A stretch of DNA of 64,000 bases from Minisyncoccia bacterium (GCA_049287305.1 JBAQFO010000013.1:189-64188); one strand, 5' to 3'. Positions 842 to 19,278 are shown, counted from the stretch's first letter. Numbers and translations: made by a program. The notes: generated from the letters alone by a model not told the origin.

Positions 842-1082
842 GCCCCATCCGCGTCTCGGACGAGATGATATCAAGCAGTATAAGCGTTTTCCGAAGAATA
901 TTCAACCAGTTTCCTAACCCCTCCGCATAGGGGGTCATTTTTTGTAAATGAGACAAATGAGACACGAAAAGGGTGTCTTGGGCACTGTCTCATTTACAGA
1001 CTGAATAGACACAATAGACAGTATAAAAAGGGCAGTTTCGGTATCTCTGGACTCCAAAGCCAATCGGCGTCATCCATTAGGA

Positions 1083-1400: not shown

Positions 1401-1476
1401 AATGCCAACAAATGCCAATAAAATGGGATTTTGAAGAGTAGCTAAAAACGGGCAAAAATGCTAGATTGCATAGATA

Positions 1477-2676: not shown

Positions 2677-2680
2677 ATAT

Positions 2681-3163
2681 ATGTCTAACGATTTATACAT
2701 ACAACTTCCAAATGACTTTGAAGAGCAGTACCTGAAATACAAGGCTGCTCTTTTGGGCGAAGAAATTAAGCCCGTGAAAACCGAGATTTTTCAGGAGGCA
2801 GATAAAAAATATTCCGACCTAAAAGAGCCGATAATGATAAAAACTTTGGGAATAGAAATTAGCGACTATTATATATCGAAGGGCAACGAAAAACGCGAAA
2901 TTAACGCTACAGATAAATGGCTCATATATTTCTTGTACTACAAATTTACGAAAAATAAAGACGAGTGTTTTAGACCCGAACGACTCGTGGCAGAAATGGA
3001 GGCGGAACTGGGCAAAAAAACTGAAAAATATATCGAAAATAGAATTGGGGAAATAAACAAACTGGTTAAAGAACTAATAGTAAAAGGCAGGACGAACATT
3101 GGAAAATTTATTAAGCACGAAAAAGGCCGCGGCTATCACTTAAATCCCAAAATTGTGATATAG
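2681..3163 (+). CDS. hypothetical protein, 160 aa (island-encoded)
   Basis: ORF starts 5 nt after the previous stop (operon-like); no motif recognised. Confidence 0.45.
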   Translation: MSNDLYIQLPNDFEEQYLKYKAALLGEEIKPVKTEIFQEADKKYSDLKEPIMIKTLGIEISDYYISKGNEKREINATDKWLIYFLYYKFTKNKDECFRPERLVAEMEAELGKKTEKYIENRIGEINKLVKELIVKGRTNIGKFIKHEKGRGYHLNPKIVI

Positions 3164-3257
3164 GCCACAAAATAATCCCAAGAAAATAAACGCTTGGGAA
3201 AATTCAATATTTTTTTCTCTGAAATACCTTTGTAAAATAAGGGTGTTTTTTAATATA

Positions 3258-3283
3258 TCACAAACAGGTCACAAAATTTGTGA
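3258..3283. promoter_or_regulatory. operator-like palindrome TCACAAA-a-TTTGTGA plus an upstream TCACAAA half-site, in the AT-rich region upstream of the methyltransferase operon
   Basis: perfect 7-bp inverted repeat with 1-nt spacer at 3269-3283; extra direct half-site at 3258-3264; lies in a 200-bp AT-rich intergenic region about 90 bp before the 3370 start. Confidence 0.3.
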
Positions 3284-3369
3284 TTCCTCTAGAAGTTAAA
3301 CTTAAGATAATTCTTTTCGAGAAGAAGATTATAAATTTTATTCACCTTCCTTTTCTCTAATCATACTAT

Positions 3370-4698: not shown

Positions 4699-5453
4699 GT
4701 ACGACCATTAAGCAAGGAGACATATACAAGCTCGGAGAGCATATCATTGCCTGCGGCGATGCGTTGGATGCCAACTTTGTGAACAAGGTCATTGGCAACA
4801 GAAAAATCAGGGCGATACTTACAGACCCGCCGTATGGAGTCGACTATGTCCAAGGGAAAAAATATCTCAATCAAAAAATGGGGGTTGAGAGCGATAAGGA
4901 CATTGTCGGCGATCAACTGCAAACGGATGAAGAGTATGCGGAGTTCACTAGAAGCTGGCTCGGACTCGCCATTCCATATCTTGATTCATATAACGCCTGC
5001 TATATCTTCAACAGCGACCTGATGTTTCCCGCGCTCCGGCAAGGCATGAAACAAGCCGGATTCCATTACAGCCAGATGATCATCTGGCTCAAAAACCAAG
5101 TCGTCATGAATCGGAAAGACTATCTCATGATGTTCGAGTTAATCGCTTACGGCTGGTTCGGCAGGCACAAAATGGAGCGCTCGAAAGCAAAGAGCGTGCT
5201 TTTTCACCCGAAACCGAGTAAATCAAAACTGCACCCGACGCAAAAACCAGTGGGACTCTTGAGAAAGCTGATACCGAATTCTACGAAGATAAACGAATAT
5301 GTGTACGACCCGTTTCTTGGAAGCGGGAGTACGACCGTGGCTTGCGAACATCTCGGTCGAAGATGCATCGGCATAGATATTGATCCGGAATATGTGGCGA
5401 TAGCGATTGCCCGTGTGGAAAAGCTGACCGGCAAAAAAGCGGTAAAGGTATGA
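4659..5453 (+). CDS. DNA methyltransferase, N4/N6 (PF01555-like) family
   Basis: DPPYGV catalytic motif and HPTQKPVGLLRKLI AdoMet motif; start overlaps the previous gene by 40 nt (translational coupling). Confidence 0.8.
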   Translation: MGGIYQPKSETIMSTTIKQGDIYKLGEHIIACGDALDANFVNKVIGNRKIRAILTDPPYGVDYVQGKKYLNQKMGVESDKDIVGDQLQTDEEYAEFTRSWLGLAIPYLDSYNACYIFNSDLMFPALRQGMKQAGFHYSQMIIWLKNQVVMNRKDYLMMFELIAYGWFGRHKMERSKAKSVLFHPKPSKSKLHPTQKPVGLLRKLIPNSTKINEYVYDPFLGSGSTTVACEHLGRRCIGIDIDPEYVAIAIARVEKLTGKKAVKV

Positions 5454-5836
5454 GCGATGAATTTCCAAACCCAAAGAAATTCGGAGTGTACAAGACCCAA
5501 GACTTCGAGTCCTACGCTCTGTGGAAGGCGTTGCCCTCGTTCCTCCGGGGCCAGCCACGTCAAGTGCTTGAGAAATTCGGCATTGACGAGGAAATTGCGC
5601 TTGGCTTGCTTGAAATCAAAACGCAGGCCGAGTTCGCGAGGCGATTTAATATCAAGGATCCTGCAACTTTGACGGATTGGAACAAGAAATTGGAGAAGGA
5701 AGAAGTTATACCAAGAATCCACGCATGGGCCCGGAAGCTTACCCCGAACGTCATCTTTGCCCTCTACCGCACCGCGAGCAAACACGGCAAAGCACCCGAG
5801 GTAAAGGCGTGGCTGGAAATAGTGGAAGGCATGTAA
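5450..5836 (+). CDS. hypothetical small protein (phage-like, helix-rich; possibly DNA-binding)
   Basis: ATGA start/stop overlap with the upstream MTase gene; no definitive motif. Confidence 0.45.
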   Translation: MSDEFPNPKKFGVYKTQDFESYALWKALPSFLRGQPRQVLEKFGIDEEIALGLLEIKTQAEFARRFNIKDPATLTDWNKKLEKEEVIPRIHAWARKLTPNVIFALYRTASKHGKAPEVKAWLEIVEGM

Positions 5837-5842
5837 AAATAT

Positions 5843-6067
5843 ATGAAATATCCAAATTTAGAAAAATTAGGAGATAAAAACATGAACGCGGAAGACGTGG
5901 CGTCGATTCTTTCGCAGACTCTGAAGGATGTAGCGGCGAGAAAAATTACGCTCAGGTACGCACTTGTTGTATCCCGTCTCGCCCTCGCTCTGTCTAAAAC
6001 AATTGAAACGGTGGAACTGAAGAAGCGAGTGGAATTTATCGAGCAAGTTCTCAAAAAACGAAAATGA
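5843..6067 (+). CDS. hypothetical small protein
   Basis: 74-aa ORF; sits between coupled genes in the same orientation. Confidence 0.35.
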   Translation: MKYPNLEKLGDKNMNAEDVASILSQTLKDVAARKITLRYALVVSRLALALSKTIETVELKKRVEFIEQVLKKRK

Positions 6068-7575
6068 AAAACCTAGCTACTTTGTTGAAAAAAGGAGACC
6101 TGACTCCTAAGGAACGGATGCTCTTTCTGGTACACGATGCGGTAAGTAAGGACAAAACTGGCAAGGAAATTCTGACAGAAGCGGACAGGCACGCATTGTC
6201 GGAAGGATGGAAACCACTGCATGACCGCGAGGTAGACGAATATAACCGCTACAATAAAGGGTGGCGGACAGAGGGTTCCCTTCGACTGGATGCCCAGACT
6301 ACTTACTTGAACGCTCAAGTTTCCCTGCTGCGGTCGAGCAGGCTTCTCGACTACGCCATGTGGAGCGACTCCCTGCAAAAAGGAAATGGATTTGGGAAAA
6401 TACATCTCTATGTAGACGAAAACGAAGCGCTGGATCTTATCCTAAAAAATACCGGGCTTCGATTCGATCAATTTTTACATAGCTATACGTTTCAAAAAAT
6501 AGACGAGGACTTAAAAAAAGACATTTTAGCTCTCTACGAGGACGCGGGAACCGAAAGTCAGTACCTCGACCAGGAAGAAATTATCGCGGACTTGTTTAAT
6601 GGCACAGAACAGCTGACAGTGGAAGCAAAGGAAAAACTGGCTGACATAATCGCTGACGTGCCTCACAACAGATACGCCGAGCTTTTCAAGGAAAAAGGCA
6701 TGAAGTCTGGAGCATGGTGGTTCTATGGGTATTTCGCCGAACTGCCGACTTTGGAAATAGCGAAAAGGTGGGCAGACGAGAACGAGATCAGCTATGATGC
6801 CAATAGCGAAACCTTGGCGGAGGATTTGTCTCTCAAGATCCAAGATTATGCGGAGAAAAACAAAGTTGAGGTCAGAGAGCTATTAAGAAGAACCATCCGT
6901 AAATGGTTGGACGAGGGCTTGTTCGAAAAGAAGTACGTTCCTTTATGCAATAGTGCTGACAAAACTACGTGCAACGACAGCGACACTAAACTTCCCCACA
7001 TGGAGATTTTAAAAAGGTGGCTCAAAGCCAAGGACGAAGCAGAGGCAGAAATACAAAAACTGATAGATGCTGGGCAGTTGAAAGTTGAAGTCAGGGAAAA
7101 AGAAATTTTTGAATCAAAGGAGAGTATGAAAATAATAACGGGTGAGAGTTTGTATAACCTCCAAGGCGGTTTCGACTTCGCTCAAGATTTCAAAAACCAA
7201 GTTGAAGGCCTGAAGCCGCTCGATTGCCTCATTTTGTTTTTGCGAAACGGCGATTTCTTGAAGGGCTACGCTTCTCTCTTGGCCTTTGCCGATATTTACA
7301 AAAAACTATCGAGGCTTTACGAGATCGATTTGGGCTACAAAATAGACGGATTCATCAATGATTTCAAGAAAAGCATAGAACAGTTGAATGACGAACTGCG
7401 ATACCTTGCCGAAAAGTTGGAAGGAAATATTTACCGGGAAAACAACACCAAATTCCTGGCCGAGGTTTTCATGGACCGTATGCTTATTCGCCTGGAGGAC
7501 ATAGAGCCGGGAACGGACGAAACGGAAATGCACTATGCTCAAGAGTTTGAAAAAATATTTCTGAATTTATTTTAA
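6064..7575 (+). CDS. hypothetical protein, 503 aa
   Basis: ATGA overlap with the upstream ORF; long acidic, helical ORF; no motif recognised. Confidence 0.5.
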   Translation: MKNLATLLKKGDLTPKERMLFLVHDAVSKDKTGKEILTEADRHALSEGWKPLHDREVDEYNRYNKGWRTEGSLRLDAQTTYLNAQVSLLRSSRLLDYAMWSDSLQKGNGFGKIHLYVDENEALDLILKNTGLRFDQFLHSYTFQKIDEDLKKDILALYEDAGTESQYLDQEEIIADLFNGTEQLTVEAKEKLADIIADVPHNRYAELFKEKGMKSGAWWFYGYFAELPTLEIAKRWADENEISYDANSETLAEDLSLKIQDYAEKNKVEVRELLRRTIRKWLDEGLFEKKYVPLCNSADKTTCNDSDTKLPHMEILKRWLKAKDEAEAEIQKLIDAGQLKVEVREKEIFESKESMKIITGESLYNLQGGFDFAQDFKNQVEGLKPLDCLILFLRNGDFLKGYASLLAFADIYKKLSRLYEIDLGYKIDGFINDFKKSIEQLNDELRYLAEKLEGNIYRENNTKFLAEVFMDRMLIRLEDIEPGTDETEMHYAQEFEKIFLNLF

Positions 7576-7619
7576 TCACAAACAGCAAAAGACTGCGTGT
7601 AGCACCGCAGCCCCCGCCG

Positions 7620-8867
7620 GTAACATATTCTTTTAGTGGAGGCCGTCAGTTAGTGAACTTTAATAATGAACTATGCGACTAGAACTTAATGCGATCCGGA
7701 AACATGAGCGTCAACTGGGCCATGATTTCTCCCCAATTAAAGCAGGACTTCTCCCATCTCTCGGAGATGTCGGCTTGAGCGAGCCAGAGCAGTTTGACTA
7801 AAGCGTCATCGTGCGGGAAGACCTGGGTAGTCTTGGTTACTTTCCTAAACTGGCGGTTCAGATTTTCAATCGTGTTCGTGGTATAGATCATTCTCTTGAC
7901 CACTTGAGGATAGCCGAAAAACGGAGAAATATCGCTCCAGCGATTCTCCCAACTTTGCAGGTATGAGATGTACTGTGGCCACTGTTTTTCCATTTCTTTC
8001 AGGGCTTGGAGTCCGGCGTCTTCTGTCGCGGCGGTGTATACCGCTTTTAGATAATCGGCAAATTTCTTCCTGTCTTTGTTGGAGATGAACATCAGAGTGT
8101 GCCGGATTTGATGGACGACGCAGACCTGGACTTCCGTTCTTGGGAAAATGGTCTTAATGGCGTCGGGAAATCCTTTGAGTCCATCGACACAAGCGATAAG
8201 TATATCATCGACGCCCCTATTTTTTAACTCGTTCAGAACATGCATCCAGAATTTTGCGCCTTCTGTTTCACTGATCCAGATACCTAGGATTTCTCTGTGA
8301 CCATAGAGGTTAATGCCGAGAGCGATGTAGGCAACCTTTGAAGAGATTTTCCCGGCTTCACGAACTTTGAAGTGCATCCCATCCAAGTAAAGAATTGGGT
8401 AGCAGGAAGACAGCGGCCTGGCTTGCCACTCTTTCACAAGCGGAAACACTTTGTCGGTAATCGCGGAGATAGCAGGCTGTGATATTTCCATCTTGTTCGC
8501 TCGCTTCAGGAAATTGGAAATATCTCTGGTGGTTAATCCTTTAGCATAGAGGTCTATGATCATCGCCTCGGTTTCGTTGCCCACCAAGTCATACCACGGA
8601 CTGCGACTATTTGCTTCTTCCGGTAGATCAGGTTGGGAATTTGTCGGGATTAGGCTCGTCTGTTTGGGTTCGGATGGGAACGATTCTACCATGATGGTTT
8701 CTTCACTAATTTCAGGTTTTTCCTGCAATGCTGAAAGTTCCTTAGCCATCGCCAGAATTTCCTCAGGACTATTAATTTTCCGTATCTTGGTTTGATACCC
8801 GTACGGCAGGGTACTTATTTTATTTTTCATATGTTTGGTCGACCTGCCACCTAAAGAACGGTGTCAC
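7620..8867 (-). mobile_element. IS256-family insertion sequence (about 1.25 kb) with imperfect terminal inverted repeats
   Basis: left end 7620-7649 GTAACATATTCTTTTAGTGGAGGCCGTCAG; reverse complement of right end 8836-8867 is GTGACACCGTTCTTTAGGTGGCAGGTCGACCA; the two align as imperfect IRs flanking the transposase. Confidence 0.65.
7679..8830 (-). CDS. IS256 family (mutator-type) transposase
   Basis: 383 aa; conserved mutator-transposase pattern (ILYLDGMHFKVRE ... ACVDGLKGFPDAI ... VQVCVVHQIRHTL ... YTTNTIENLNRQFRKVTK). Confidence 0.9.
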   Translation of the reverse strand: MKNKISTLPYGYQTKIRKINSPEEILAMAKELSALQEKPEISEETIMVESFPSEPKQTSLIPTNSQPDLPEEANSRSPWYDLVGNETEAMIIDLYAKGLTTRDISNFLKRANKMEISQPAISAITDKVFPLVKEWQARPLSSCYPILYLDGMHFKVREAGKISSKVAYIALGINLYGHREILGIWISETEGAKFWMHVLNELKNRGVDDILIACVDGLKGFPDAIKTIFPRTEVQVCVVHQIRHTLMFISNKDRKKFADYLKAVYTAATEDAGLQALKEMEKQWPQYISYLQSWENRWSDISPFFGYPQVVKRMIYTTNTIENLNRQFRKVTKTTQVFPHDDALVKLLWLAQADISERWEKSCFNWGEIMAQLTLMFPDRIKF

Positions 8868-9152
8868 CTGCGAGCGGATGCCCGCGAGGACTATTTTACG
8901 AATTTTATTGGTTTTGCATAGATTTGTTTACAAAAAAGTGTTGAATTTATTGATTAAATTCATGACGCAACTATTGACTTTTGTGCGAAATATGATATAT
9001 TATATATGGTACCTGTTCCTTGCTAAGTACATACGTACAAAGTCTGCTCGTGACGAGCCAGAGGAATTATGGTACTAGAAAATTCTTATTGAGAATGTCT
9101 GCGGCATAGTGCCAAAGGCTCAATAAGGAAAACCCAACCTTGAGGGCAGACC

Positions 9153-9722
9153 GTGGCAGAGACTACGGACGCATCCTCAAGTTGCTTCGGTGGCAGACCC
9201 GCGAAGGGACGTCACCAAGGAGGAACGATGAGTAGGAGTCGAGAACCTGATGTATTCCTAAACCACAGTTCCGCAGTACACACCGTGAGATTCAGCGAAA
9301 ACGGACGGCTTGGCGGGCTTGCAATACCCGGCCAGTTCTTCGTGTTTCGCGATCTCGCAGTTCAGTGTGAAGGAGAGCATTCGCCGGAGGTGGCGTGCGG
9401 CAGGTGCCGCGTGACCGGCTCGGTTTCGGCGTTCAAGCTCTTCACGAACATGCTTCTTGCTGCAGGCAAGGTGATTCTGGGAGCCGATGACAATGTGCGG
9501 CTCAATGGAACCACTCGAGAAACGATCCCGATGCATCTCGACAGGCAGACGGACGTAGAACAGATGGCGATCGTCGATGCCCCCTCGGAGAAACGCATGT
9601 GGCTGCTCCTCGAGAGTTGCGTCGCCGAACTTCGTAAGTCGAAAGAGGCAGCAACCTCATGGTCTTATGCCATTCCAAGTTCTCTCACCCAGACCAGGCG
9701 CACGGCATCCGTGTCGCACTAA
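9153..9722 (+). CDS. hypothetical protein in high-GC insert (uncertain gene call)
   Basis: 189-aa ORF in about 60% GC DNA, where long spurious ORFs are common; no motif. Confidence 0.25.
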   Translation: MAETTDASSSCFGGRPAKGRHQGGTMSRSREPDVFLNHSSAVHTVRFSENGRLGGLAIPGQFFVFRDLAVQCEGEHSPEVACGRCRVTGSVSAFKLFTNMLLAAGKVILGADDNVRLNGTTRETIPMHLDRQTDVEQMAIVDAPSEKRMWLLLESCVAELRKSKEAATSWSYAIPSSLTQTRRTASVSH

Positions 9723-9734
9723 AAAGGAACGAAA

Positions 9735-10667
9735 ATGAAAACACTTGTCAGCATCACTCTCTCCATCATCCTGCCTTTCATGGGTCTCACGGCCCAGGCG
9801 GCGGATTCTCCGCAGCCGAAGAGCAAGGCATTCTGCCTCTCCGCCGTCACTAAGGGTCTGGTGACCGCGAACCCGAAGGCGAAGACCTGGTCCACTTCGA
9901 AACCCGAGCAGCAACGCTTCATGTCCACCTATTACGACGGCGCAGTCGCCGATCTGCACAAGGTGGACGATGACAAAGTTCTGCAGGCGATCGCCACAGG
10001 CAGTTCGGCGAAACTCCAGGACTTCTTTGCCAAAGGCGGCTTCGCTAACATGCCGGTCCGAATCCCGGCGGGCGGACACGCGGTCGGAGTGCTGTTCGAT
10101 CTGCTCGTCGACTGGAAAACGGTCGGTGAGCAGAAGGACATCTCCATTCGTCGACCTCAGGGAGGTTACGACGATTACTCCGGCGCTCAGATGCTCGAGT
10201 TCGAGGCCTTCAGTCTCGAGGGTCACAAGTATCCGCTTTTCCGGATCGAGACACGCCAAGGCTGGGACGTCTACCTGGTGGAAGCCGCCGATGGCGAGAA
10301 TCTCCAGGCTTCCGACTTTCCCGCGCGCGCGAAAGCTCTCCTCGGCCTTCCTCGCGAAGAGGCGGACTACGAGAAGCTGAACTTCCCGAGCGTCCTGATG
10401 TCTGCCGATGTGGACATTTCATGGATGGTTGGGATGCGCGTTCCCGGATTCTCGATCGACGAGGCGGTGAAGAAGATCAAGCTTCGTCTCGACGAGAAAG
10501 GTGCACGTGCCCAGTCCGCTGTCGCTTTCACGACTCGTGGCATGGACTCGTCCTACACCATCCAGAGGTCTTTCTACGTGATCTTCACGCGTGAAGGCCT
10601 CAACTTTCCGCCGTTCGTCGCCCTTGCGGCGCCCGATTCCTGGGTGAAGCAGGGCAGCAACGACTAA
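9735..10667 (+). CDS. secreted hypothetical protein (high-GC insert)
   Basis: N-terminal signal peptide MKTLVSITLSIILPFMGLTAQA-AD; plausible SD (aaaaggaacg) upstream; 310 aa; no recognisable domain. Confidence 0.55.
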   Translation: MKTLVSITLSIILPFMGLTAQAADSPQPKSKAFCLSAVTKGLVTANPKAKTWSTSKPEQQRFMSTYYDGAVADLHKVDDDKVLQAIATGSSAKLQDFFAKGGFANMPVRIPAGGHAVGVLFDLLVDWKTVGEQKDISIRRPQGGYDDYSGAQMLEFEAFSLEGHKYPLFRIETRQGWDVYLVEAADGENLQASDFPARAKALLGLPREEADYEKLNFPSVLMSADVDISWMVGMRVPGFSIDEAVKKIKLRLDEKGARAQSAVAFTTRGMDSSYTIQRSFYVIFTREGLNFPPFVALAAPDSWVKQGSND

Positions 10668-10720
10668 CCCTCAACCCGAGGGACGCGCCACAAGCCGCTC
10701 CTCAAAACACCTCTGGAGGT

Positions 10721-11209
10721 ATGACCATGAAGCTTTGGAAAAAGCTCGCAATCGTTCTCGTGTTCATCGCTGCTGCTGTTGAAACCCTCTTCATTGGAGG
10801 TGCCTACGCTGTCGCGGCGAAAGCTCGCTCGGAGGCTGCGGTGGCACAACAGGAAGCAAAGGACATTGAGGTCCGGGCTCGTCGCCGCGTCGAAGCCTGC
10901 GAAGCGGACGCGCGAAAAACAATGGACCGGCTCGCCGCCAAGGACGCGGAGCTCTTCCTCAAAAAGGAGCTCGGCCTCGATGCCGACTATCCCATGAATG
11001 ATCGAGTGAAGGAGGAGACGGAGTTGTACGTATGGTTTCTTGAAGCCGATCTTGAATCGCTCGACAGTTTTATCAAAGGGCGAGAAGATCAGTTCGACTT
11101 CAATCAAACGTACAAACGCCAGCAGAAGATCAATACCTTCTACCTCGAAAAAATCTACGATGCGGCAAGGCGGTGCGGCATTCACATCCGACCGTACCCC
11201 GGTCGCTGA
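10721..11209 (+). CDS. membrane-anchored hypothetical protein (high-GC insert)
   Basis: N-terminal hydrophobic helix KKLAIVLVFIAAAVETLFIGGAYAVAA followed by a charged, helical domain; GGAGG upstream. Confidence 0.5.
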   Translation: MTMKLWKKLAIVLVFIAAAVETLFIGGAYAVAAKARSEAAVAQQEAKDIEVRARRRVEACEADARKTMDRLAAKDAELFLKKELGLDADYPMNDRVKEETELYVWFLEADLESLDSFIKGREDQFDFNQTYKRQQKINTFYLEKIYDAARRCGIHIRPYPGR

Positions 11210-11234
11210 AAGCACTTTAGTTTGTTATCACCCC

Positions 11235-11272
11235 GAGGCCGGCGTTCGAAAGGACGCTGGCCTCATTTTTTT
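11235..11272 (+). terminator. rho-independent terminator closing the high-GC insert
   Basis: GAGGCCGGCG-ttcgaaagga-CGCTGGCCTC stem-loop followed by ATTTTTTT. Confidence 0.6.
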
Positions 11273-11384
11273 AATAAGATTGATAGATTGTTCGGAATCT
11301 CTTATAATATATGGGTCCTCTATAATTTTGAATAGGTACACATTTGCCCTTATTCTCAAAAAGATAGATGGATAAATTAAATTT

Positions 11385-12425
11385 ATGCTTGAATCCCGAA
11401 GAGAATTTTTTAAACATCTAACTTTACCAAAAAACGAAACCCGTTCTATTGGCAACGCGACAGCAGCTAAAAACCCACTTGAAAGAACAGCTTCACGCCG
11501 AGATTTCATTAAAGTTCTAGGCATTGTTGCTACTGCACTTGCAATTCCAGAAGATATTTATGCCAGAAAGAGAGACAAAAGAAACCAAGCGATTGAGAAA
11601 GAGGGTTCATTCATTACCCCCGAACAGCTGCGAAAAATGGTGCTCACAGATAACTCAGAGCGCGTTTTTATCCGTTTTCCGAACTCGCCGCGCCTATACG
11701 AGATAACGGACCGGAGCCAAAACTTGATTGCATTCGCGCGAGGCGCGATGACCCCGGAAACTGAGAAAATGCTAGAGCAGTCAGATGAGTTTACGAAAAT
11801 TCATACGCATCCCTTAGGAATTTACGGCATAGCTGGATATACTCCCGATGAAATTGACGCGGCGCGGGAAGGCCTGATGCCAGTTCCTCTCTCCATGCCG
11901 CCAAGCATCCCGGATCTTCTGAGCGCAAAGATAATTAGCCAAATTGAAGGTATGGGAGAGCCGATCCGAGTGAATCAAGAAATCTATGGCACAGATGGCA
12001 TTTGGCGTTTTAAAGGCGGAGCAGACAGCGTTTTGCTTACGGAAATCGAGCAAGTAAACCAAGAACTTGTAAATATCTTCTCGGATTTCCGAAAAACTCT
12101 TCCTGCCAATCTTCAAGGACCCTACGACAAAATCATCCACCTTGCTGAAAATGAGGGCGATGCCCGCCAAGGATTTGTCTGCCGGAATATAAACGAGCTT
12201 ACGAAAAATCCAACATTTGCTCCTTACCTTCCCCTTTTGGAAGAAAAACTTGCAAAATTATCTTTGGAGTACAAAGAAACTTTCGCTCTTATGGAAGAGA
12301 TGACCGCGCTGAGCATTGCCATGACACACCCGGAACAACGTGATGCGGCACTACAGAGATATTTGGCAATTGTAGAAAAAGAAGGTTTTGAAATTAAATT
12401 TGAGCCATATAAAATCCATGTTTGA
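11385..12425 (+). CDS. hypothetical protein with a Tat-type signal (true start may be internal)
   Basis: SRRDFIKVLGIVATALAIP twin-arginine motif about 35 aa into the ORF; no catalytic motif. Confidence 0.5.
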   Translation: MLESRREFFKHLTLPKNETRSIGNATAAKNPLERTASRRDFIKVLGIVATALAIPEDIYARKRDKRNQAIEKEGSFITPEQLRKMVLTDNSERVFIRFPNSPRLYEITDRSQNLIAFARGAMTPETEKMLEQSDEFTKIHTHPLGIYGIAGYTPDEIDAAREGLMPVPLSMPPSIPDLLSAKIISQIEGMGEPIRVNQEIYGTDGIWRFKGGADSVLLTEIEQVNQELVNIFSDFRKTLPANLQGPYDKIIHLAENEGDARQGFVCRNINELTKNPTFAPYLPLLEEKLAKLSLEYKETFALMEEMTALSIAMTHPEQRDAALQRYLAIVEKEGFEIKFEPYKIHV

Positions 12426-12993
12426 AAGACTTTGGAAAAATAAAGAAGCAAGGGCGGTTGACGAAGCTCTTGTAAAAAAGAAAGTATTCCATGGTAATGT
12501 TGCCGTGCCCTCAATACCTGGTGATTCACTAGAAAATTTTAGTCCGGATTTGGAACGCAGTATAGAGCATAATATTGAAATGTTTTTAGGTCCCTTGGTT
12601 TCAGGAAAAGGAGAAGAAATACCTGTTCTTACCAGAAGAGCCGACGATGGGAAAATTAGTCAAGAAATGGTTGCTCATGCGGAAGTAGATTTTGAAAGCG
12701 GCGAGATTATTAAGTTTACTGGGAAAGGTCTAGATAATCCAAAACGCGAGACAAAAGTAACTTTTTTTCTAGCTCTCGGACCTTATGATACAGCGGAGAT
12801 AGCTTATAGAGAACAGTTCAACAGGAAAGGAAAAGGATATATGAGTTTCTCTATTTCTTCCCTTGAATGGGAGTTCCAGCGTAATTGGCCGCAATTATCT
12901 GAAAAAGCAAAACGGGTACTTGAAGCTTCGGTTCAAAGATATAATTCAAAGAGCGGAGCACAACCGCCTGACCCGAAGTACTTTAAGAATTAA
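12388..12993 (+). CDS. hypothetical protein
   Basis: ORF overlaps the previous gene by 38 nt in another frame. Confidence 0.45.
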   Translation: MKLNLSHIKSMFERLWKNKEARAVDEALVKKKVFHGNVAVPSIPGDSLENFSPDLERSIEHNIEMFLGPLVSGKGEEIPVLTRRADDGKISQEMVAHAEVDFESGEIIKFTGKGLDNPKRETKVTFFLALGPYDTAEIAYREQFNRKGKGYMSFSISSLEWEFQRNWPQLSEKAKRVLEASVQRYNSKSGAQPPDPKYFKN

Positions 12994-13068
12994 TGGCTTA
13001 CTATTGCTTTTTTACTCAACTATGTTATAATATACAAATAAGGATTGCTAAATACATGAATTAAAAAT

Positions 13069-13959
13069 ATGGGAATGGAAGGACCAAACAGAACACAAGC
13101 CACAGAGGCAAAACAGCCGCCTAAGTTTAACCCCGAACCCGGTCGGCTGGATCGAAGGTTTTTAAGACAAGGAGACACCTTTTCTATTAGAGACTCTGCA
13201 GGAAATTTTTATGATTTTGCTCTAGAACCGGAACGCGTTCCTGGTGTTGTGCGGGCTAAATGCGTAAGAACTAACAACAAGCATTTTATGGGAGCGACAG
13301 GCAATCTTGCCGACATGAAAGAGGGGCAGCCATTCCGGATGTTCAGCGAGACTGCCCGCTGGGAAACAAATCCTGTTGATCAAGTGAAAGTTTCTAAGCG
13401 AGAGCTTAACGTGCTTTCCGCTATTCCAGGAAGTTGCGTGACTGTACAGGGCGAGGATGGTCGCTGGTATTCCTTTGAAATTCTTACCCGGGATATCCCC
13501 GGTCAGAAAATTGAATGGAAATGCGTGGCAGCTTCACCCGGAGAAGAGATGTTTGTGGGAACGTATGAAAATATTCCACCTCCAACCATTAAAGCGGGCG
13601 AAGAATTTTCCTTTGGGGGTAATCCGGCAAACAAGATCCGGGTTAAGGATGTAGAGTTTGAACTTAGTGTTCGCCCGGAAAGAGTTTTGGGGCTAAAGTT
13701 TAAAGAATTAATTGAAATGAGCATAGATTCTTCCCAGGATTCGGATCGGTTCGCGGAAGAACTTCGGGCATTACCAGATAAAATAATCGAGAGACTAAAA
13801 ACAATAGTGCAAGGTAAAATCTTGCCATTAAGCAGCGATCCGACAGCTCTGAAAAAAGATACTGCAAAAAGAAATGAATTGAGAATGTATACAGTCAAAG
13901 CATCGGCCATACAAAATGAAAGCGACGAAAGGGCTAAAAGATCCCGCAAGCAATCTTAA
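13069..13959 (+). CDS. hypothetical protein, starts MGMEGP
   Basis: ORF; its 5' end shares a 25-bp identical sequence with the next gene. Confidence 0.5.
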   Translation: MGMEGPNRTQATEAKQPPKFNPEPGRLDRRFLRQGDTFSIRDSAGNFYDFALEPERVPGVVRAKCVRTNNKHFMGATGNLADMKEGQPFRMFSETARWETNPVDQVKVSKRELNVLSAIPGSCVTVQGEDGRWYSFEILTRDIPGQKIEWKCVAASPGEEMFVGTYENIPPPTIKAGEEFSFGGNPANKIRVKDVEFELSVRPERVLGLKFKELIEMSIDSSQDSDRFAEELRALPDKIIERLKTIVQGKILPLSSDPTALKKDTAKRNELRMYTVKASAIQNESDERAKRSRKQS

Positions 13960-14016
13960 ATTCTGTGTTATGATATAAAGGTCGAGATTATTAAACTAAA
14001 AATATGAATTAAAAAT

Positions 14017-14406
14017 ATGGGAATGGAAACACGGAAAACCGAAAAAGAGCAGTGGCAGGAAAAAACCGCTCTAGCTAAAAATTTTCAGCTAACTCCTGAT
14101 ATGAGCGGAGATTTCACGCGACTTCGTTCAACGCTTGGACTACATCACCATTTTACAGGTCCGGCTACTCCCCAACGAATTGAGGAGTTTGTTGTGGGAA
14201 AAATTGAAGAAGAACGCGGTATGCAGCAGAGCCGTGAGGCAAGCCCCGCAGAGACTTCTGGGAAGGGATATGGAGCAGAAGAAGCTCAAAGTAAGGCAGA
14301 ATATTTTACTGAAAGCCTAAGATTGCTGGAAAGATTCCTTGCAAGACACGGCGGAGACAATGCTCGTGCAAGATTAGGCATTGAAAAAGACGAAGCTTTA
14401 GGTTAG
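14017..14406 (+). CDS. hypothetical protein, starts MGMETR
   Basis: ORF; 5' end atgaattaaaaatatgggaatggaa identical to the 5' end of 13069. Confidence 0.45.
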   Translation: MGMETRKTEKEQWQEKTALAKNFQLTPDMSGDFTRLRSTLGLHHHFTGPATPQRIEEFVVGKIEEERGMQQSREASPAETSGKGYGAEEAQSKAEYFTESLRLLERFLARHGGDNARARLGIEKDEALG

Positions 14407-14436
14407 AAAAGTTAACAGAGAGCCGGAAGTTTTCCA

Positions 14437-14468
14437 CAAAACCGCTTAAAGCGGTTTTGTTTTTTATA
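14437..14468 (+). terminator. rho-independent terminator
   Basis: AAAACCGCTT-aa-AGCGGTTTT hairpin followed by a T-run (GTTTTTTAT). Confidence 0.6.
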
Positions 14469-14556
14469 CATCTTAACCGTTTGTTTTCCTTTTTAGATTA
14501 CGCAGGAAAAGTTATCAACTTATGCCTCCTAGACTCCCCGCAGGGGTTCTGTCATC

Positions 14557-14579
14557 AATGTATGTATGGAACATACATT
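14557..14579. promoter_or_regulatory. perfect 9-bp inverted repeat AATGTATGT-atgga-ACATACATT overlapping the recombinase start; candidate recombinase binding/att core or operator
   Basis: read directly from sequence; the annotated ATG (14566) lies in the 5-nt spacer. Confidence 0.35.
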
Positions 14580-15885
14580 AACAAGGCCGATGGGGATGGA
14601 GACCAAAATATCAATCCCCGTAAGCATTAAATATTGCCTATACGCCAGAAAGAGCACCGAGCAAGAGGACAAGCAGGTTCTCTCCATTGACTCCCAGATC
14701 AAGGAAATGGAGAAAATGGCAGTAGCTGAGAATTTGGAGATCGTGGTCAGAAAACAGGAATCTCACTCAGCTAAGGAAGCGGGCCAGCGACCCATCTTCA
14801 ACGAAATCGTCGAAGAATTAAAGGCCGGAAAATACAGTGGCATCTTAACCTGGGCACCGGATCGAATCGCTCGAAATGCGGGCGATCTCGGCAGGATCGT
14901 GGACTTAATGGACCAAAAGAAGCTCATTGAAATCCGCACCTACGGACAGAAATTCATGAACACGCCGAACGACAAGTTCATGTTGATGATTTTGGGTTCA
15001 CAGGCGAAACTGGAGAACGACAACAAGGTTATAAATGTAAAGCGAGGGCTGAGAGCGAGAGTATCGATGGGACTAAGGCCGTCACTTGCTCCGACTGGAT
15101 ACTTAAACAGCAAGAACAAGGATGAGAAGTGCCAGGTATTCGTTGACCCGAAACGTGCCCCGATTATCAAGCAAATGTTTGAGAAAGTAGCCAATGAAAA
15201 TTACTCCGGCAGAAAAATATGCCAGTGGCTTAAGGAAATTAAATTCAAGACGAGGACCAACAAAGAGCTTACGCTAGGCAATGTGTACCGCCTTCTTAGA
15301 ATGACTTTCTATTATGGAGTGTTTGAATATCCTGCCGGTAGTGGAGAATGGTACACCGGCAAGCATACGCCCATAATTACTCAGTCGTTATTTGAAGCGG
15401 TGCAGGAAAAGATAAAAGTAGAAAAGAAAAAGGCCTACGGCCGAGAGTTCGCTTTTACTCGAATGCTCCATTGTGGATACTGCGAGAGCGGCATAACGGC
15501 CGAGGAGAAAATAAAGGAACTGAAAGATGGTGGATCAAACTCGCATATATACTATAGATGCACTAAAATAAAAAATCGCGACTGCCCAAACGAGTCGGTG
15601 AAAGAATCCATTCTCATAGACGAGATGCTGCCTATTATCGATACCATGAGTTTGGACAAGAGCGAGCTGAAGCAAAAGCTTGAAAAGGAAGTAGCTAGAT
15701 ATGCGCTCTTCCAAACCGGTGTGCTTAAGCAAGATTTGCCGCATTCGAAAAAAGACAGAAATATCAGTATTAAAACATTCGCCAAATATATGCTCCAGCA
15801 CGGCACGCTTTTGGAGAAGCGAGAGGTAATGTCGTGCATAAAGAGCAAAATATTTCTGAAAGACAAGAAATTGGCGGTGGAATAA
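14566..15885 (+). CDS. large serine recombinase (resolvase/invertase-type catalytic domain plus recombinase and zinc-ribbon domains)
   Basis: YARKST...S(I)DSQ catalytic serine region at the N-terminus; conserved ...RIARN... resolvase motif; C-terminal CGYC...YYRC zinc ribbon. An alternative start at 14590 (MGMETK) is possible. Confidence 0.85.
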   Translation: MEHTLTRPMGMETKISIPVSIKYCLYARKSTEQEDKQVLSIDSQIKEMEKMAVAENLEIVVRKQESHSAKEAGQRPIFNEIVEELKAGKYSGILTWAPDRIARNAGDLGRIVDLMDQKKLIEIRTYGQKFMNTPNDKFMLMILGSQAKLENDNKVINVKRGLRARVSMGLRPSLAPTGYLNSKNKDEKCQVFVDPKRAPIIKQMFEKVANENYSGRKICQWLKEIKFKTRTNKELTLGNVYRLLRMTFYYGVFEYPAGSGEWYTGKHTPIITQSLFEAVQEKIKVEKKKAYGREFAFTRMLHCGYCESGITAEEKIKELKDGGSNSHIYYRCTKIKNRDCPNESVKESILIDEMLPIIDTMSLDKSELKQKLEKEVARYALFQTGVLKQDLPHSKKDRNISIKTFAKYMLQHGTLLEKREVMSCIKSKIFLKDKKLAVE

Positions 15886-15893
15886 AAACAGAA

Positions 15894-18800
15894 TTATTCT
15901 AATTTCTCTAGAAACAATTTGCCTAACTTGTGTTCACGACTGTCCTCTGGTTGTTGTTCAAGCTCGGTACCATATCCCTTTAATTCCTTAAGGAAGGTGG
16001 TTTTTCTGCTGTATAAGGATTTAATTGCCGCCAAAGTATTCAGCATCGTTTCTTTTTCATCTAAACCAACGCTCCTTGCAGTATCAAAAAGTTTTCTTGG
16101 AAACCCATCCTTACGAGAACTTGGAAAGTCGTTGAGAACATGAGGGTCTTGAATAAAGCCGCATATCTCATTTTTCCTTGCAAGCGGTTCCCCGGTTTTT
16201 TCTAAGATGGTAGACCAAATATCAATGACTTTTTCTTTGTTTTCATTTGTAAGCAATTTGAACGAAGGAACAAGAAAGCGATAGGGTGTATTGTGTCGCG
16301 GATGATCGGCACCCAGCGATTCACCCCATTCAAGTAACTTGGGAGCTATTTCATTCACATCCTTATCTATGAGAGAAGGCCGACTTCCTTCTAATTTAGA
16401 GAGCACATGATTAGTGATCTCAAAATCTTTTGCCTCCAATACTGCATCTTTAAGAGAAGATATGTATAACTGACCCCCCTGAAGCGCCCCAAACATTTTG
16501 AGTATATCGATAATTTGGTCACGCTCTCCGGCATCGATAGTTGCAATTAACCGAGTCACTAAAGGAGTGATTAATTTTTCTCGGATGCTAATCTTCTGTT
16601 CCTCAACGCCCTTAAATAAAGTTGTAAGACGAGGAATATCAAGTCCAATGGCATGAGTTTTAAATATTTCGATAAAGTGTTGCTTCGCTTCTGGAGAATC
16701 CGTAATCAGCTTTTTAATTGCGGGAAGAAAATTGACATAATATGTAGTTGCGATATTTGGACTATTTATATAATCACTATACTGCTTTGCTACTTCAAAA
16801 ATAAGTTTCTCGGGAACCTTATCCTCAAGTACTAACTCATTCACAAATACAGCAAGTTCTTCTGGACCCTGACCCCAACTTTTTTTGTGCAAAACTTCAT
16901 GAATGTAGACAAATAATTTTTGTATCTGTGCTTCTTTAAGAAACGGAAATAGGGATTTTATGACCTCGAGATTTTGCTTTTGATTTTTATTCAGTGCTGT
17001 TGGTTCAATTTGCTGGACAGCATTCAAAAGTAAATCAGTTAAGGTCGTGTTTGCATATACGCCCAGCGCTCCTTCGTATTTACCAATCTCTTGCAAACTA
17101 GCAAGGACGTCTGGTACGTAAGAAACGCCTTGGTCATCAACATATTGGTAAGCTTTTTGTAAAGATTCTGCGACTTTCTTTTGTGCAGCAACAGGAACAA
17201 TTTTGTAGTTTTCTCCGTAGGCTTCGCTGTATTCCATAAACAGCTCATTCTCGGTCTCAAGTGGTTTTACATGTTCGTTAATGATGATGTTCCGGTCAGT
17301 AGGGCCGGATGCGTGAGTAAGAACCGACAACAACCCCTTTGCCGAAAATTCTTTGATATTTGCCAATTGACTTGTATGTGCTAAATGAGATGAAAATACA
17401 TCTGCAATCTTGGTTTTCTTCACCTCAGGGATTTCAGGAAATACTTCTTCAATGACTGACAAAATATTGAATACGATAGCAGCTTTACCTTGGTTTTTCT
17501 TTTCAACAACCTTATCTTCAAGTAGCTTCACTATCGATTTTTTTACTGCATCGTCCGCCCCTTTGAGTAATTCTTTAATGGAGTCAGATTTCCCGGTAAA
17601 GAGTGCAATCGCTAACTCAGAATCTTCACTTTCATAGCCCCCATATCCTTCGCGTTTTAAATTAATAAACTGCTCAGGGTTTCTAGAGGTAAAAGGTCGC
17701 GAAGCTTGAAGGAAATCTCCAAGTTCAGGATTTTGCTTTAATTCTGCTTGTATATTTTGTTCATGCGGCGAATCAAGTTTACGACCTCTAAGGGAACCCT
17801 CGGTCATTGAAAGAACATCAGGGTCCTTCTTTATGATGCCGAAAAACTTTGGCCATTCCTCTTGTAGGATAATTAGCTTAGCCAGAAAGGAGAGGTTGCC
17901 AGTTATAAATCCTTTATCAAGATTTTCCTGTTCCTCTTGTGCCAGTGCTAGTAAATAACTAGCACTTAAGTTGTTGTAGAATTGCTTAATTTTCCTCGGG
18001 GTATGTGAGTAGGCAGTCAATACTAAACTGGCCACATTTTCTTTTTCCGTATCATCTTTATAAGGTATGACCACATTGCTAGCAATCTTATCAATATATT
18101 TTTCTAGATCACCTCTTATAAATGGCGACAACCGAACGGTTGCTTGAAAAAACTTCTTTAAAAACTCACGGCTCTGTTTGTCCTTCTCTGGTATCGTAAG
18201 CTCGTCATTTAAGAGGCCCTCTTTGAGATGATTAATAAGAGCTTCTTCATCAACTGGCACTAAATATACACAACCCTCCACATTCAGGAATGTTTTTATT
18301 GTCCCCAGTAACTCAATTGCTGTTTCATTTGTACAACGATCAAGGTTGTCGATGGTAACTACGATGCGTTTTTTACCAATTTCGGATGCTTTTTTTACAT
18401 ATTGTCTAAAGACATCTTCGAATTGCTCGTTTGAAAATAGAGGCTTATCTTCCTCGTCAAATTTTTTAATTTGGATTAACTTAGTCGCCCTGTGTGCCAA
18501 ACCAAGGATGAGTGCGGGAATCAAGGGAGCCAAAAAAGTAATTAGGGAGCGGGGTGTCCATTGAAATTGGACAGCAAATATATACCATCCGATGTACCAT
18601 GCAATAAGCTCAAAGATGAGATTTTTTATCTCCTCTACATTCCACTCTAAATCTCCAGATTGTCGCGTTCTTTTGATTGTTTTATAGAGTCGAACCGGAA
18701 GCGTATCGTCATTAATTGAAAGGTCTTCTTTCATCTGCTTCAGAAATTGTCTGTAGAAAGCGTCTTTTTGATATTTCCAAGCGTCAAAATATACAAATCC

Positions 18801-19052
18801 TATACCCGGGGTTTCGGCAAGTCGTTTTTTTAAAAATTTGTTTACAAGCGTAGTTTTTCCAACACCCCATTTACCAAGAAGGCCTACAACGAAAGGGGTT
18901 TGGCATTCTCTTACTAAGGCTTCGAGGGTGTTTATGTAGTGGTCAAATCCAAAGTTATCTTCGTCAGATGGTTCATCCACCACAAAAAGGGATTTGTTTT
19001 TAAACAAATTCTTTTCATAAACTTCTTTTTTCTTTTGATCCCACCAAGTCAT
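15894..19052 (-). CDS. KAP-family P-loop NTPase
   Basis: Walker A GLLGKWGVGKTTL; two hydrophobic helices (AWYIGWYIFAVQF...LITFLAPLIPALILGLA) inserted between Walker A and the Walker B-like VVTIDNLDRC, the KAP-family hallmark; 1052 aa. Confidence 0.75.
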   Translation of the reverse strand: MTWWDQKKKEVYEKNLFKNKSLFVVDEPSDEDNFGFDHYINTLEALVRECQTPFVVGLLGKWGVGKTTLVNKFLKKRLAETPGIGFVYFDAWKYQKDAFYRQFLKQMKEDLSINDDTLPVRLYKTIKRTRQSGDLEWNVEEIKNLIFELIAWYIGWYIFAVQFQWTPRSLITFLAPLIPALILGLAHRATKLIQIKKFDEEDKPLFSNEQFEDVFRQYVKKASEIGKKRIVVTIDNLDRCTNETAIELLGTIKTFLNVEGCVYLVPVDEEALINHLKEGLLNDELTIPEKDKQSREFLKKFFQATVRLSPFIRGDLEKYIDKIASNVVIPYKDDTEKENVASLVLTAYSHTPRKIKQFYNNLSASYLLALAQEEQENLDKGFITGNLSFLAKLIILQEEWPKFFGIIKKDPDVLSMTEGSLRGRKLDSPHEQNIQAELKQNPELGDFLQASRPFTSRNPEQFINLKREGYGGYESEDSELAIALFTGKSDSIKELLKGADDAVKKSIVKLLEDKVVEKKNQGKAAIVFNILSVIEEVFPEIPEVKKTKIADVFSSHLAHTSQLANIKEFSAKGLLSVLTHASGPTDRNIIINEHVKPLETENELFMEYSEAYGENYKIVPVAAQKKVAESLQKAYQYVDDQGVSYVPDVLASLQEIGKYEGALGVYANTTLTDLLLNAVQQIEPTALNKNQKQNLEVIKSLFPFLKEAQIQKLFVYIHEVLHKKSWGQGPEELAVFVNELVLEDKVPEKLIFEVAKQYSDYINSPNIATTYYVNFLPAIKKLITDSPEAKQHFIEIFKTHAIGLDIPRLTTLFKGVEEQKISIREKLITPLVTRLIATIDAGERDQIIDILKMFGALQGGQLYISSLKDAVLEAKDFEITNHVLSKLEGSRPSLIDKDVNEIAPKLLEWGESLGADHPRHNTPYRFLVPSFKLLTNENKEKVIDIWSTILEKTGEPLARKNEICGFIQDPHVLNDFPSSRKDGFPRKLFDTARSVGLDEKETMLNTLAAIKSLYSRKTTFLKELKGYGTELEQQPEDSREHKLGKLFLEKLE

Positions 19053-19207
19053 TGGTGAGATTGTTTAAGGTGAAGCGGCATGAAACAATCATACCATTTT
19101 CTTTCTAAAAATCTAACTTAATTTTTGGTTCGATTCCCGCATGGGGTAATCGATTTTGCAACTCAAAAACCATTGAATTTATTAGGCCTCCGCATCGACC
19201 TTGACTG

Positions 19208-19278
19208 TGCGGGATGCGAGAATCGAACTCGCGTCTAATCCTTGGGAAGGACTCATTTTACCACTAAACTAATCCCGC
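19208..19278 (-). tRNA. tRNA-Gly (anticodon CCC)
   Basis: reverse complement GCGGGATTAGTTTAGTGGTAAAATGAGTCCTTCCCAAGGATTAGACGCGAGTTCGATTCTCGCATCCCGCA folds as a cloverleaf: 7-bp acceptor stem, T-arm GCGAG-TTCGATT-CTCGC, anticodon stem AGTCC/GGATT with loop TTCCCAA; no encoded CCA. Confidence 0.8.

Follow-up and report, generated by a model that had tools for sequence, protein, structure and literature searches.

A KAP-family NTPase with a C-terminal HEAT-like solenoid as cargo of a tRNA-integrated island in a Minisyncoccia bacterium: a candidate single-protein defence system

Introduction

What is the task of a large P-loop NTPase that sits at the very end of an integrative island, beside the tRNA gene into which this island is inserted? 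The question is raised by a KAP-family gene in a stretch of 64,000 nucleotides from a Minisyncoccia bacterium (GCA_049287305.1 JBAQFO010000013.1:189-64188), the whole of which is referred to as the window in the following. A preliminary description of this DNA had reported a 1052-aa KAP protein with a long C-terminal extension between a recombinase and a tRNA attachment site, and had proposed an abortive-infection or exclusion function.

The present analysis points to a self-contained, membrane-anchored KAP NTPase, carried as island cargo, which by analogy to characterised proteins would most likely provide single-polypeptide defence against phages or other invading DNA. We hold this reading with somewhat better than even confidence, and the broader one, a role in conflict comprising either defence or exclusion, with slightly more. 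It is based on the architecture of the protein, the family defined by its solenoid, the lack of a partner gene, the defence-rich neighbourhoods of relatives, mobility, purifying selection and the published work on KAP proteins, Tmn, PifA and QatA. The protein represents an uncharacterised subfamily of an already known kind of protein and not a new system.

Results

A KAP NTPase with a predicted membrane hairpin between its Walker motifs

The gene (Table 1) is a complete open reading frame (ORF) on the minus strand, with an ATG start, no internal stop codons and its stop codon at 15894-15896. The identical protein is carried by 2 contigs only and is named 'P-loop NTPase fold protein [Minisyncoccia bacterium]' by NCBI. 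Because of this annotation, the host was placed, by lineage look-up, among the Candidate Phyla Radiation (CPR)/Patescibacteria.

The protein belongs to the KAP family, as the score of the hidden Markov model (HMM), the Walker motifs and the predicted transmembrane insert all agree. The Pfam match to PF07693 (E=1.5e-40, 139.7 bits against a cut-off of 20) covers model positions 1-290 of 293 and is preceded by 35 residues only. Walker A and Walker B are separated by about 170 residues, and between them lie two hydrophobic helices at about residues 139-162 and 167-192 (138-161 and 166-191 in the numbering of the AlphaFold model), with a Kyte-Doolittle 19-mer peak of 1.91, which form the predicted membrane hairpin. 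KAP NTPases reportedly carry transmembrane helices inserted inside the NTPase domain. Thus, the hallmark order of Walker A, two predicted membrane helices and Walker B, which the preliminary description had pointed out, was confirmed by the motifs, the hydrophobicity scan and the AlphaFold helices, as was the placement of an intact gene with a Pfam match between recombinase and tRNA-Gly.

These features could be followed through an alignment of 45 family members. The order of Walker A, hydrophobic insert and Walker B was conserved in 45/45, with 1 or 2 hydrophobic segments at the equivalent position in every one. The G.WG.GK[ST] pattern of Walker A was present in 43 of them. In the case of Walker B, 41 members showed the form hhhhDN[LIV]DR, in which an Asn replaces the usual second acidic residue, and DDLDR or DELDR was kept in the other four, which have longer or divergent C-terminal regions. 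Invariant residues were W62, G63, G65, K66, D235, D238, R239, K300, F302, P352 and R353 (protein numbering; positions in the family alignment are one higher). Judged from the motif, the Asn-type Walker B may stand for slow hydrolysis, reminiscent of a switch rather than a motor. The family profile found no solved KAP NTPase among PDB sequences.

The C-terminal tail is predicted to be an arm followed by a HEAT/ARM-like solenoid

The tail had previously been described as about 750 aa long and devoid of any recognisable domain. The part past the Pfam domain comprises about 686 aa, and although the HMM libraries were silent (beyond residue 366 no match was obtained in Pfam, PADLOC, PHROGs or NCBIfam), structure prediction gave not a featureless extension but a helical arm and a confident solenoid, and HEAT/ARM-type repeats were recognised by profile comparison with PDB sequences and by fold comparison.

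In detail, the AlphaFold2 model of the full-length protein, built with 45 homologues as input, had a mean predicted local distance difference test score (pLDDT) of 86.4 and a predicted template modelling score (pTM) of 0.50, the latter being as expected since the domains are flexibly linked. The sole stretch with a pLDDT below 50 (model residues 467-475) was a disordered linker at about residues 467-475, between arm and solenoid. Modelled alone, the C-terminal part reached a pLDDT of 91.3 and a pTM of 0.77. The top Foldseek matches in the PDB were SF3B1, PP2A-A, CAND1, CAP-G, RRP12 and importins, all of the HEAT type, with a probability of 1.0 and E-values of about 1e-6 to 1e-4, but with a TM-score of only about 0.3. 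Searched against PDB sequences, the family profile matched HEAT/ARM proteins and designed helical repeats at 1e-8 to 1e-3. By both comparisons, residues 476-1052 are predicted to adopt a HEAT/ARM alpha-solenoid fold. RdrA of RADAR (8hrb_A) also appeared in the Foldseek search, at rank 19 and a TM-score of 0.22-0.26, and was discarded as too weak and unlocalised.

Not a single residue of the solenoid is invariant, and with an isoelectric point of 5.65 (family median 5.74) it is mildly acidic. Both properties are in line with a scaffold that binds proteins and speak against an enzyme as well as against a polycationic binder of nucleic acids; our reading of the modelled solenoid is accordingly that of a putative binding scaffold and not of an enzyme. 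In the arm, P401 and F447 are nearly invariant, and KAP genes that have other C-termini were often matched by tblastn up to about residues 410-460.

The solenoid defines a rare and patchily distributed family

To describe the family, a profile of the solenoid only was built from 14 sequences and searched against 1.84 billion representatives, one per 50%-identity cluster. This gave 289 matches at E<=1e-3, of which 199 had E<=1e-10 and 102 E<=1e-30. In every full-length match inspected, by its listed positions or, for six sequences, by reading them in full, the solenoid occupied about residues 450-1070 of 1040-1130-aa proteins, behind the KAP domain. Because of these positions, the solenoid is regarded as a module specific to this family, which was encountered only as a fusion behind a KAP NTPase.

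Of the six sequences read, five are shorter and seem to be fragments of genes or calls that were cut short. The remaining one, P0085, is full length (1466 aa); in front of its KAP domain it possesses an N-terminal extension of 430 aa, which comprises a start like that of a signal peptide, a segment rich in Ser, Thr and Glu and one further transmembrane helix. Judged from these segments, this variant would possess an extracellular part.

Family membership of the genomes named here was confirmed with the solenoid HMM. Members were found in Minisyncoccia and their relatives (60-78% identity, and one at 42% on a 1.2-Mb contig), in one Thermodesulfobacteriota and one gammaproteobacterial metagenome-assembled genome, in Atribacteria, Omnitrophota and Solirubrobacterales, and in several haloarchaea, including the plasmid pHfr4; three other haloarchaeal plasmids probably carry members as well (tblastn only). 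No relative of more than 40% identity was present among the best GTDB matches. As a whole, this rare and patchy distribution across Bacteria and Archaea indicates horizontal transfer.

Regarding selection, the two closest relatives, at loci L004 and L005, gave a ratio of nonsynonymous to synonymous substitution (dN/dS) of 0.033 overall and of 0.02-0.04 in the solenoid. The estimate comes from this pair alone, as dS between the window gene and its relatives is saturated. It indicates purifying selection, so that every domain is functionally constrained. Between the window protein and L005, identity was 69-70% in the hairpin and the first half of the solenoid and 88-91% in the NTPase core, meaning that the former change about twice as fast.

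Relatives lie in defence-rich neighbourhoods and lack a common partner

Neighbouring genes were collected from 16 distinct genome loci (148 neighbour ORFs) and from 13 metagenome loci (66). No Pfam family was common to more than 3 neighbours in either set, which indicates that the protein is self-contained. The idea of a conserved partner gene was rejected in general: even the HTH_11 gene found upstream of the KAP gene in L004 and L005 is absent from the window.

Many of the neighbouring genes belong to defence systems. Ranked by frequency, the top eleven neighbour families of the metagenome loci were all restriction-modification (R-M), methylase or helicase families. Among the individual loci, L001 has SIR2, a DUF87 helicase, BsoBI R-M and GIY-YIG as neighbours, and L014 has DrmE_C and a helicase. 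In L017, a type IIG enzyme ends where the KAP gene begins and RhuM follows it. Type I R-M was located near L103 and L108, type IIG enzymes near L113 and L116, an N6_N4 methylase at L115, and Cas1 was also among the neighbours. In the case of L015 (Atribacteria), an Eco57I/MmeI-type methylase and an SNF2 helicase lie upstream, and a 793-aa ThiF (E1-like)/Prok-JAB fusion (16329-18707, +) lies about 6 kb downstream of the KAP gene. L015 is a dense defence island and may include ubiquitin-like (Bil/CBASS-type) components.

If the homologues had been core genes in a conserved housekeeping context, the defence proposal would have been difficult to maintain. Instead, they are patchily distributed, with variable neighbourhoods that often contain R-M, DISARM-like or SIR2 genes or belong to plasmids. 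The same data bear on a role outside of conflict, in which the protein would be a membrane scaffold or signalling NTPase like eukaryotic Kidins220/ARMS, in a CPR episymbiont maybe concerned with the envelope or with host attachment. HEAT solenoids are generic scaffolds, purifying selection is strong, some neighbourhoods are of the housekeeping kind, and P0085 has its signal peptide and extracellular extension. We nevertheless regard this role as unlikely, considering the lower-GC island location, the presence of the identical protein on 2 contigs only, the rarity and sporadic occurrence of the family (289 clusters in 1.84 billion representatives) and the enrichment of R-M and defence genes among neighbours.

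It had also been asked whether the gene is always the terminal cargo next to an integrase. This holds only for the window and for L004 and L005, and these two use an unrelated serine recombinase: they share a 567-aa enzyme different from that of the window, and neither this enzyme nor their HTH_11 gene has a homologue in the window. Besides the window, a tRNA near the KAP gene was found only in L004 and in L026 (tRNA-Lys, 342 nt upstream), and a rule of tRNA/integrase adjacency was thus rejected. Since the adjacency is not general, the KAP gene behaves like mobile cargo, passed on as a module among unrelated integrative elements and defence islands.

Some further observations concern these relatives. 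The shared recombinase is intact in L005 (2-1702, -; 567 aa) and split in L004 (6217-7925, -) into ORFs of 219 aa and 360 aa, 99% and 91% identical to it, probably by a frameshift, and the L004 island may consequently be immobilised. A tRNA-Glu(CTC) at L004 6183-6257, at the recombinase end, abuts this gene. Genes of dCMP/MafB19-type deaminases are located near two members (L004 13124-14045, +; L010 2844-4340, +), the one in L004 beginning 10 nt past the KAP stop codon and being followed by DUF5680. These deaminases could represent a linked nucleotide-modifying or nucleotide-depleting function in some lineages.

The gene is the tRNA-proximal cargo of an integrative island

In the window, the KAP gene lies at one end of an island whose features are listed in Table 1. 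The two 17-nt direct-repeat copies differ by 1 mismatch, with a chance expectation of 0.02 matches in the window, and the variant in the left copy, read from the sequence, still permits a G·U pair in the acceptor stem. Just outside the left repeat there is a core glutaredoxin gene (515-751, -). A second assembly with an identical glutaredoxin also bears the left end of the island, and its left flank continues past the glutaredoxin with the core genes HSP20, PrsW, an aminoacyl-tRNA synthetase and TsaD. To the right of the tRNA, phosphoenolpyruvate synthase and enolase were identified, judged from their translations alone. Because of the tRNA 3'-end repeats at both edges and the core genes outside, the region between the repeats is considered an integrative island. 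Elements of large serine recombinases, for example SCCmec, are known to have direct repeats that restore the target gene at its 3' end. With the repeats, the terminal recombinase and the outside core genes all present, this is a tRNA-integrated island with a serine recombinase.

The recombinase has 439 aa and matches the PHROG 95 integrase at 5e-60; its nearest NCBIfam model is CcrB (1.5e-32, below the cut-off of that model). It is convergent with the KAP gene, the two stop codons being 8 bp apart. At the other end, 154 nt separate the KAP start codon from the 3' end of the tRNA. Because a sigma-70 scan called no sigma-70-like site in this leader, the promoter listed in Table 1 is a presumed one; no regulatory RNA was matched there by Rfam. 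The GC content of the KAP gene is 38-40%, compared to 42-43% in the core flank. Altogether, the attachment site, the position of the gene as island cargo beside the recombinase and its convergent orientation stand as initially described.

Table 1. Coordinates of the KAP gene, its parts and the surrounding island features in the window
Feature	Position	Strand	Source
KAP-family NTPase with C-terminal solenoid, complete gene	15894..19052	-	ORF list and translation
KAP P-loop NTPase domain, residues 36-366	17955..18947	-	Pfam PF07693 KAP_NTPase
Walker A GKWGVGKT, residues 60-67	18852..18875	-	Sequence
Hydrophobic helical hairpin, about residues 139-192, predicted membrane anchor	18477..18638	-	AlphaFold helices and Kyte-Doolittle
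Walker B IVVTIDNLDR, residues 230-239	18336..18365	-	Sequence
Helical 'arm', residues 367-466	17655..17954	-	AlphaFold secondary structure
HEAT/ARM-like alpha-solenoid, residues 476-1052 (577 aa, about 35 helices), putative sensor	15897..17627	-	AlphaFold, Foldseek and profile
Presumed promoter region, 154 nt between KAP start codon and tRNA 3' end	19053..19206	-	Sequence
Integrative island, 18.4 kb, KAP gene as tRNA-proximal cargo	826..19208		Bounded by direct repeats
Large serine recombinase	14566..15885	+	Pfam Resolvase, Recombinase, Zn_ribbon_recom
tRNA-Gly(CCC), integration target, 3' end toward the island	19207..19278	-	ARAGORN; Rfam tRNA 68.5 bits
Left direct-repeat copy GCGGAATGCGAGAATCG, attL core	809..825	+	Repeat search
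Right direct-repeat copy GCGGGATGCGAGAATCG, 17 nt, tRNA 3' end, attR core	19209..19225	+	Repeat search

This location invites two other explanations. The gene could serve the mobile element, by exclusion or addiction: it would prevent competing elements from entering or establishing themselves, or would stabilise the island, phage defence being at most a side effect. It is indeed located inside the att-bounded island and beside the recombinase, its closest relatives are likewise cargo of serine recombinases, and other relatives are on plasmids. However, most members lie in chromosomal R-M or defence islands without recombinase or plasmid context, and no toxin-antitoxin-like partner was seen among the 148 and 66 neighbour ORFs. 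We consider service to the element improbable as the principal function.

Alternatively, the protein could be one component of a multi-gene system together with the recombinase or with upstream secreted proteins, as QatA is in QatABCD. This explanation draws on the small gap between the two genes and on serine recombinases having been reported as markers of defence loci (PMC13552941). Also, on the IMG/VR contig L092 (7719-9356, 9968-13867, 18425-19627), a large serine recombinase lies directly upstream of a 1299-aa KAP gene, accompanied by a ParB-methylase homologue; the C-terminus of this KAP protein differs from that of the window protein, and the ParB-methylase homologue has 28-33% identity. 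Yet the convergent KAP and recombinase genes are not co-transcribed, none of the window's island proteins has a homologue beside any family member, the recombinase and HTH_11 of L004 and L005 are missing from the window, and QueC and TatD are absent from the most frequent neighbour families of the relatives. A multi-gene system is accordingly given very little probability, and the single-polypeptide reading is retained.

The other contents of the island are a ParB_N-N6_N4 methylase fusion, a second methylase, an IS256/Mutator-family transposase and unknown ORFs. The methylase fusion (3370-5453, +) overlaps the second N6_N4 methylase, and no restriction endonuclease came up in those island ORFs that were searched. 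At 9000-11200, a 2-kb patch of 55-59% GC in this 42% GC genome lies directly beside the transposase (7679-8830, -; Pfam E=6e-84). Two ORFs lie in this patch, one of 310 aa, whose hydrophobic N-terminus resembles a signal peptide, and one of 162 aa, whose N-terminal segment is hydrophobic; neither gave a significant family match. The patch was either brought in as cargo from a donor of high GC content or results from a chimeric assembly.

Two unknown genes that follow one another share a 33-nt direct repeat (94% identical; 13048-13080 and 13996-14028) over their start regions, and both begin with MGME. The recombinase ORF has MGME at residues 9-12 (ATGGGGATGGAG; 14590-14603). The shared motif suggests a common translation-start cassette and perhaps a later true start of the recombinase.

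In the last 80 nt of the island, at 19129-19148 (+), the sequence TTCGATTCCCGCATGGGGTA resembles a tRNA T-loop and 3' acceptor end, inverted with respect to the tRNA-Gly and about 65 nt away from it. Its first 14 nt equal the T-arm of the tRNA-Gly with one change (chance expectation 0.14), and it was not called as a tRNA by ARAGORN or Rfam. It may be what is left of an integration that took place earlier, or it may belong to the site of the recombinase.

Regarding a phage origin of the island, no phage structural genes were found among the island proteins with PHROGs, and tblastn against 50,697 phage genomes gave no match for the KAP protein and two large island ORFs; IMG/VR has 9 KAP relatives only, all of them weak. 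These searches speak neither for nor against a prophage origin.

Comparison with known systems

Single proteins in which a KAP NTPase is followed by an uncharacterised C-terminal region were described in 2026 as antiphage proteins that need both the Walker B motif and the C-terminal region (PMC13552941). The window protein shares with them the single-protein format, the KAP domain, an intra-domain transmembrane helix, a long tail without Pfam match and the link to serine recombinases, a likeness by layout. In detail, EF_KAP has a transmembrane helix at its N-terminus, one internal helix and a tail of 322 aa; in the window protein, the hairpin is internal, and the tail, 686 aa long, contains a HEAT solenoid. 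Moreover, the recombinase is large in the window (439 aa, with a Zn ribbon) and small in the case of the published proteins. EF_KAP protected equally at low and high multiplicity of infection and is thus not abortive (PMC13552941). This is the one KAP fusion tested in that respect. The earlier proposal could be upheld only in part: defence or exclusion is still the best reading from context and the KAP literature, while abortive infection specifically is unsupported.

A second comparison concerns Tmn of the YobI family, a self-contained decamer with two transmembrane helices inside the P-loop domain and an ARM/HEAT solenoid as sensor, which senses RIIB of phage T2 and responds with increased ATP turnover, Mg2+ export and plasmolysis (PMC13001434). 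Both proteins show the succession of Walker A, two transmembrane helices, Walker B and a variable C-terminal ARM/HEAT-type solenoid thought to sense the trigger; both have about 1000-1300 aa, lack a conserved operon and occur on chromosomes and plasmids. The resemblance is architectural only. Membership in the Tmn/YobI group was rejected, as there was no match to YobI-ATPase (PF20693) at E<=1 and no Tmn model among the PADLOC matches at E<=10, HMMER filters possibly masking very weak matches of this kind. A distant family member, P0038, touches YobI-ATPase below the threshold.

In the case of PifA, the KAP domain and carriage by a mobile element are shared. PifA is the founding bacterial KAP protein, is encoded by the F plasmid and excludes phage T7; as cited in PMC13001434, it acts by membrane depolarisation and nucleotide leakage. 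It is said to be without transmembrane helices, unlike the window protein with its predicted hairpin. The PADLOC model of PifA matched at 2e-17 (61 bits), and only residues 29-366 with model positions 14-317 of 720. A full-length correspondence was therefore rejected, the C-terminal halves being unrelated. The best PADLOC model, PDLC04959 of the candidate system PDC-S20 (5e-24), aligned residues 26-365 with model positions 13-324 of 464, thus the NTPase part of a much shorter protein.

The Avs/STAND proteins also combine a repeat-type C-terminal sensor with a P-loop switch in one large protein that is often found in defence islands (PMC13001434). The window protein has a membrane hairpin, which typical Avs proteins do not have. 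Assignment to this group was rejected, since no N-terminal effector domain is present and the NB-ARC, NACHT and nSTAND models matched at E 0.016 or worse (NB-ARC 0.016).

Finally, QatA is similar locally, around Walker B (PADLOC 2e-15; NCBIfam 72.5 bits). With 72.5 bits against an equivalog cut-off of 600 and no qatB, qatC or qatD (QueC, TatD) in the island, a QatA assignment was rejected. QatA forms 7-8-mers and binds DNA; part of Qat defence does not require it, and its role may be a regulatory one (PMC13279940). This last point leads to the notion that the window protein, too, could be a sensor or adaptor only, with the output delivered by an unlinked host factor, the hairpin being a mere anchor and no effector being intrinsic. 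The protein has no enzymatic effector domain, its conserved residues are confined to the NTPase, and the Asn in Walker B suggests a slow switch, all of which would suit such a role. On the other hand, given the patchy spread across domains, the protein is unlikely to depend on a specific partner in the host, there is no linked partner gene, and KAP fusions from unrelated bacteria were functional in Enterococcus faecalis (PMC13552941). A role as sensor only therefore seems improbable compared to that of a self-contained protein.

Discussion

From the predicted architecture, a mechanism with three steps could be envisaged. Firstly, the 577-aa HEAT-like solenoid would act as the binding surface that recognises a protein derived from the invader. 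Secondly, the KAP NTPase would serve as a nucleotide-dependent switch that oligomerises or changes its state upon recognition; we infer this role because the motifs are intact and conserved, and from other KAP and YobI proteins. Thirdly, the intra-domain hairpin would hold the assembly at the membrane, and it is the only candidate for an effector. By analogy to PifA and Tmn, clustered hairpins might disturb the membrane or ion homeostasis, possibly with consumption of NTP, and so halt replication. This specific membrane-effector step is put forward tentatively, with clearly less confidence than the defence role as such.

Several observations weigh against defence by a membrane-anchored single protein. 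The first hydrophobic helix of the window protein is weakly hydrophobic, under the threshold of 1.6, and fast NTP hydrolysis is, from the sequence, not assured in view of the Asn in the Walker B of most members. No full-length PADLOC model was matched, all PADLOC matches lying within the NTPase. The gene-wide dN/dS of L004 and L005 gave no sign of positive selection, unlike the diversification often seen in sensors. In the genomes of cultured phages, no related protein was found (tblastn against the 50,697 phage genomes). An empty attB was not encountered in JGI metagenomes (0 matches of the glutaredoxin-to-tRNA pattern). Moreover, the association with defence genes is guilt by association, and some loci have housekeeping neighbours only, e.g. 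ThiG, PHO4, TBP/TFIIB and RNR.

A bolder interpretation would be that, within the KAP clade, the family corresponds to Tmn: an oligomeric immune machine, encoded by one gene and embedded in the membrane, in which the solenoid binds a viral protein and the assembled hairpins form an ion conduit driven or gated by the Asn-type Walker B, exchanged among CPR bacteria, other bacteria and haloarchaea. We regard this as possible though doubtful.

As for the wider meaning, a role of KAP NTPases in conflict was proposed twenty years ago, and single-protein antiphage action, with C-terminal fusions, was shown only in 2026. The locus described here adds a structurally predictable subfamily of about 290 clusters with a common 577-aa HEAT-like solenoid in Bacteria and Archaea. 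Of moderate interest are the CPR host, the spread across domains, the fact that a KAP-clade protein is laid out like Tmn, and the Asn in Walker B. In practical terms the gain is modest, namely a candidate for catalogues of defence systems and for structural work, and no new principle. For the CPR host, the candidate belongs to a group whose antiviral repertoire is poorly known. The Tmn layout in a different NTPase family additionally offers a comparison for whether an internal transmembrane hairpin together with a solenoid implies a common membrane or ion mechanism. Should the interpretation as a Tmn counterpart be true, two NTPase families would have arrived at the same design of a P-loop domain with internal transmembrane hairpin and solenoid, and the family would be one of the few immune sensors common to ultra-small episymbionts and archaea.

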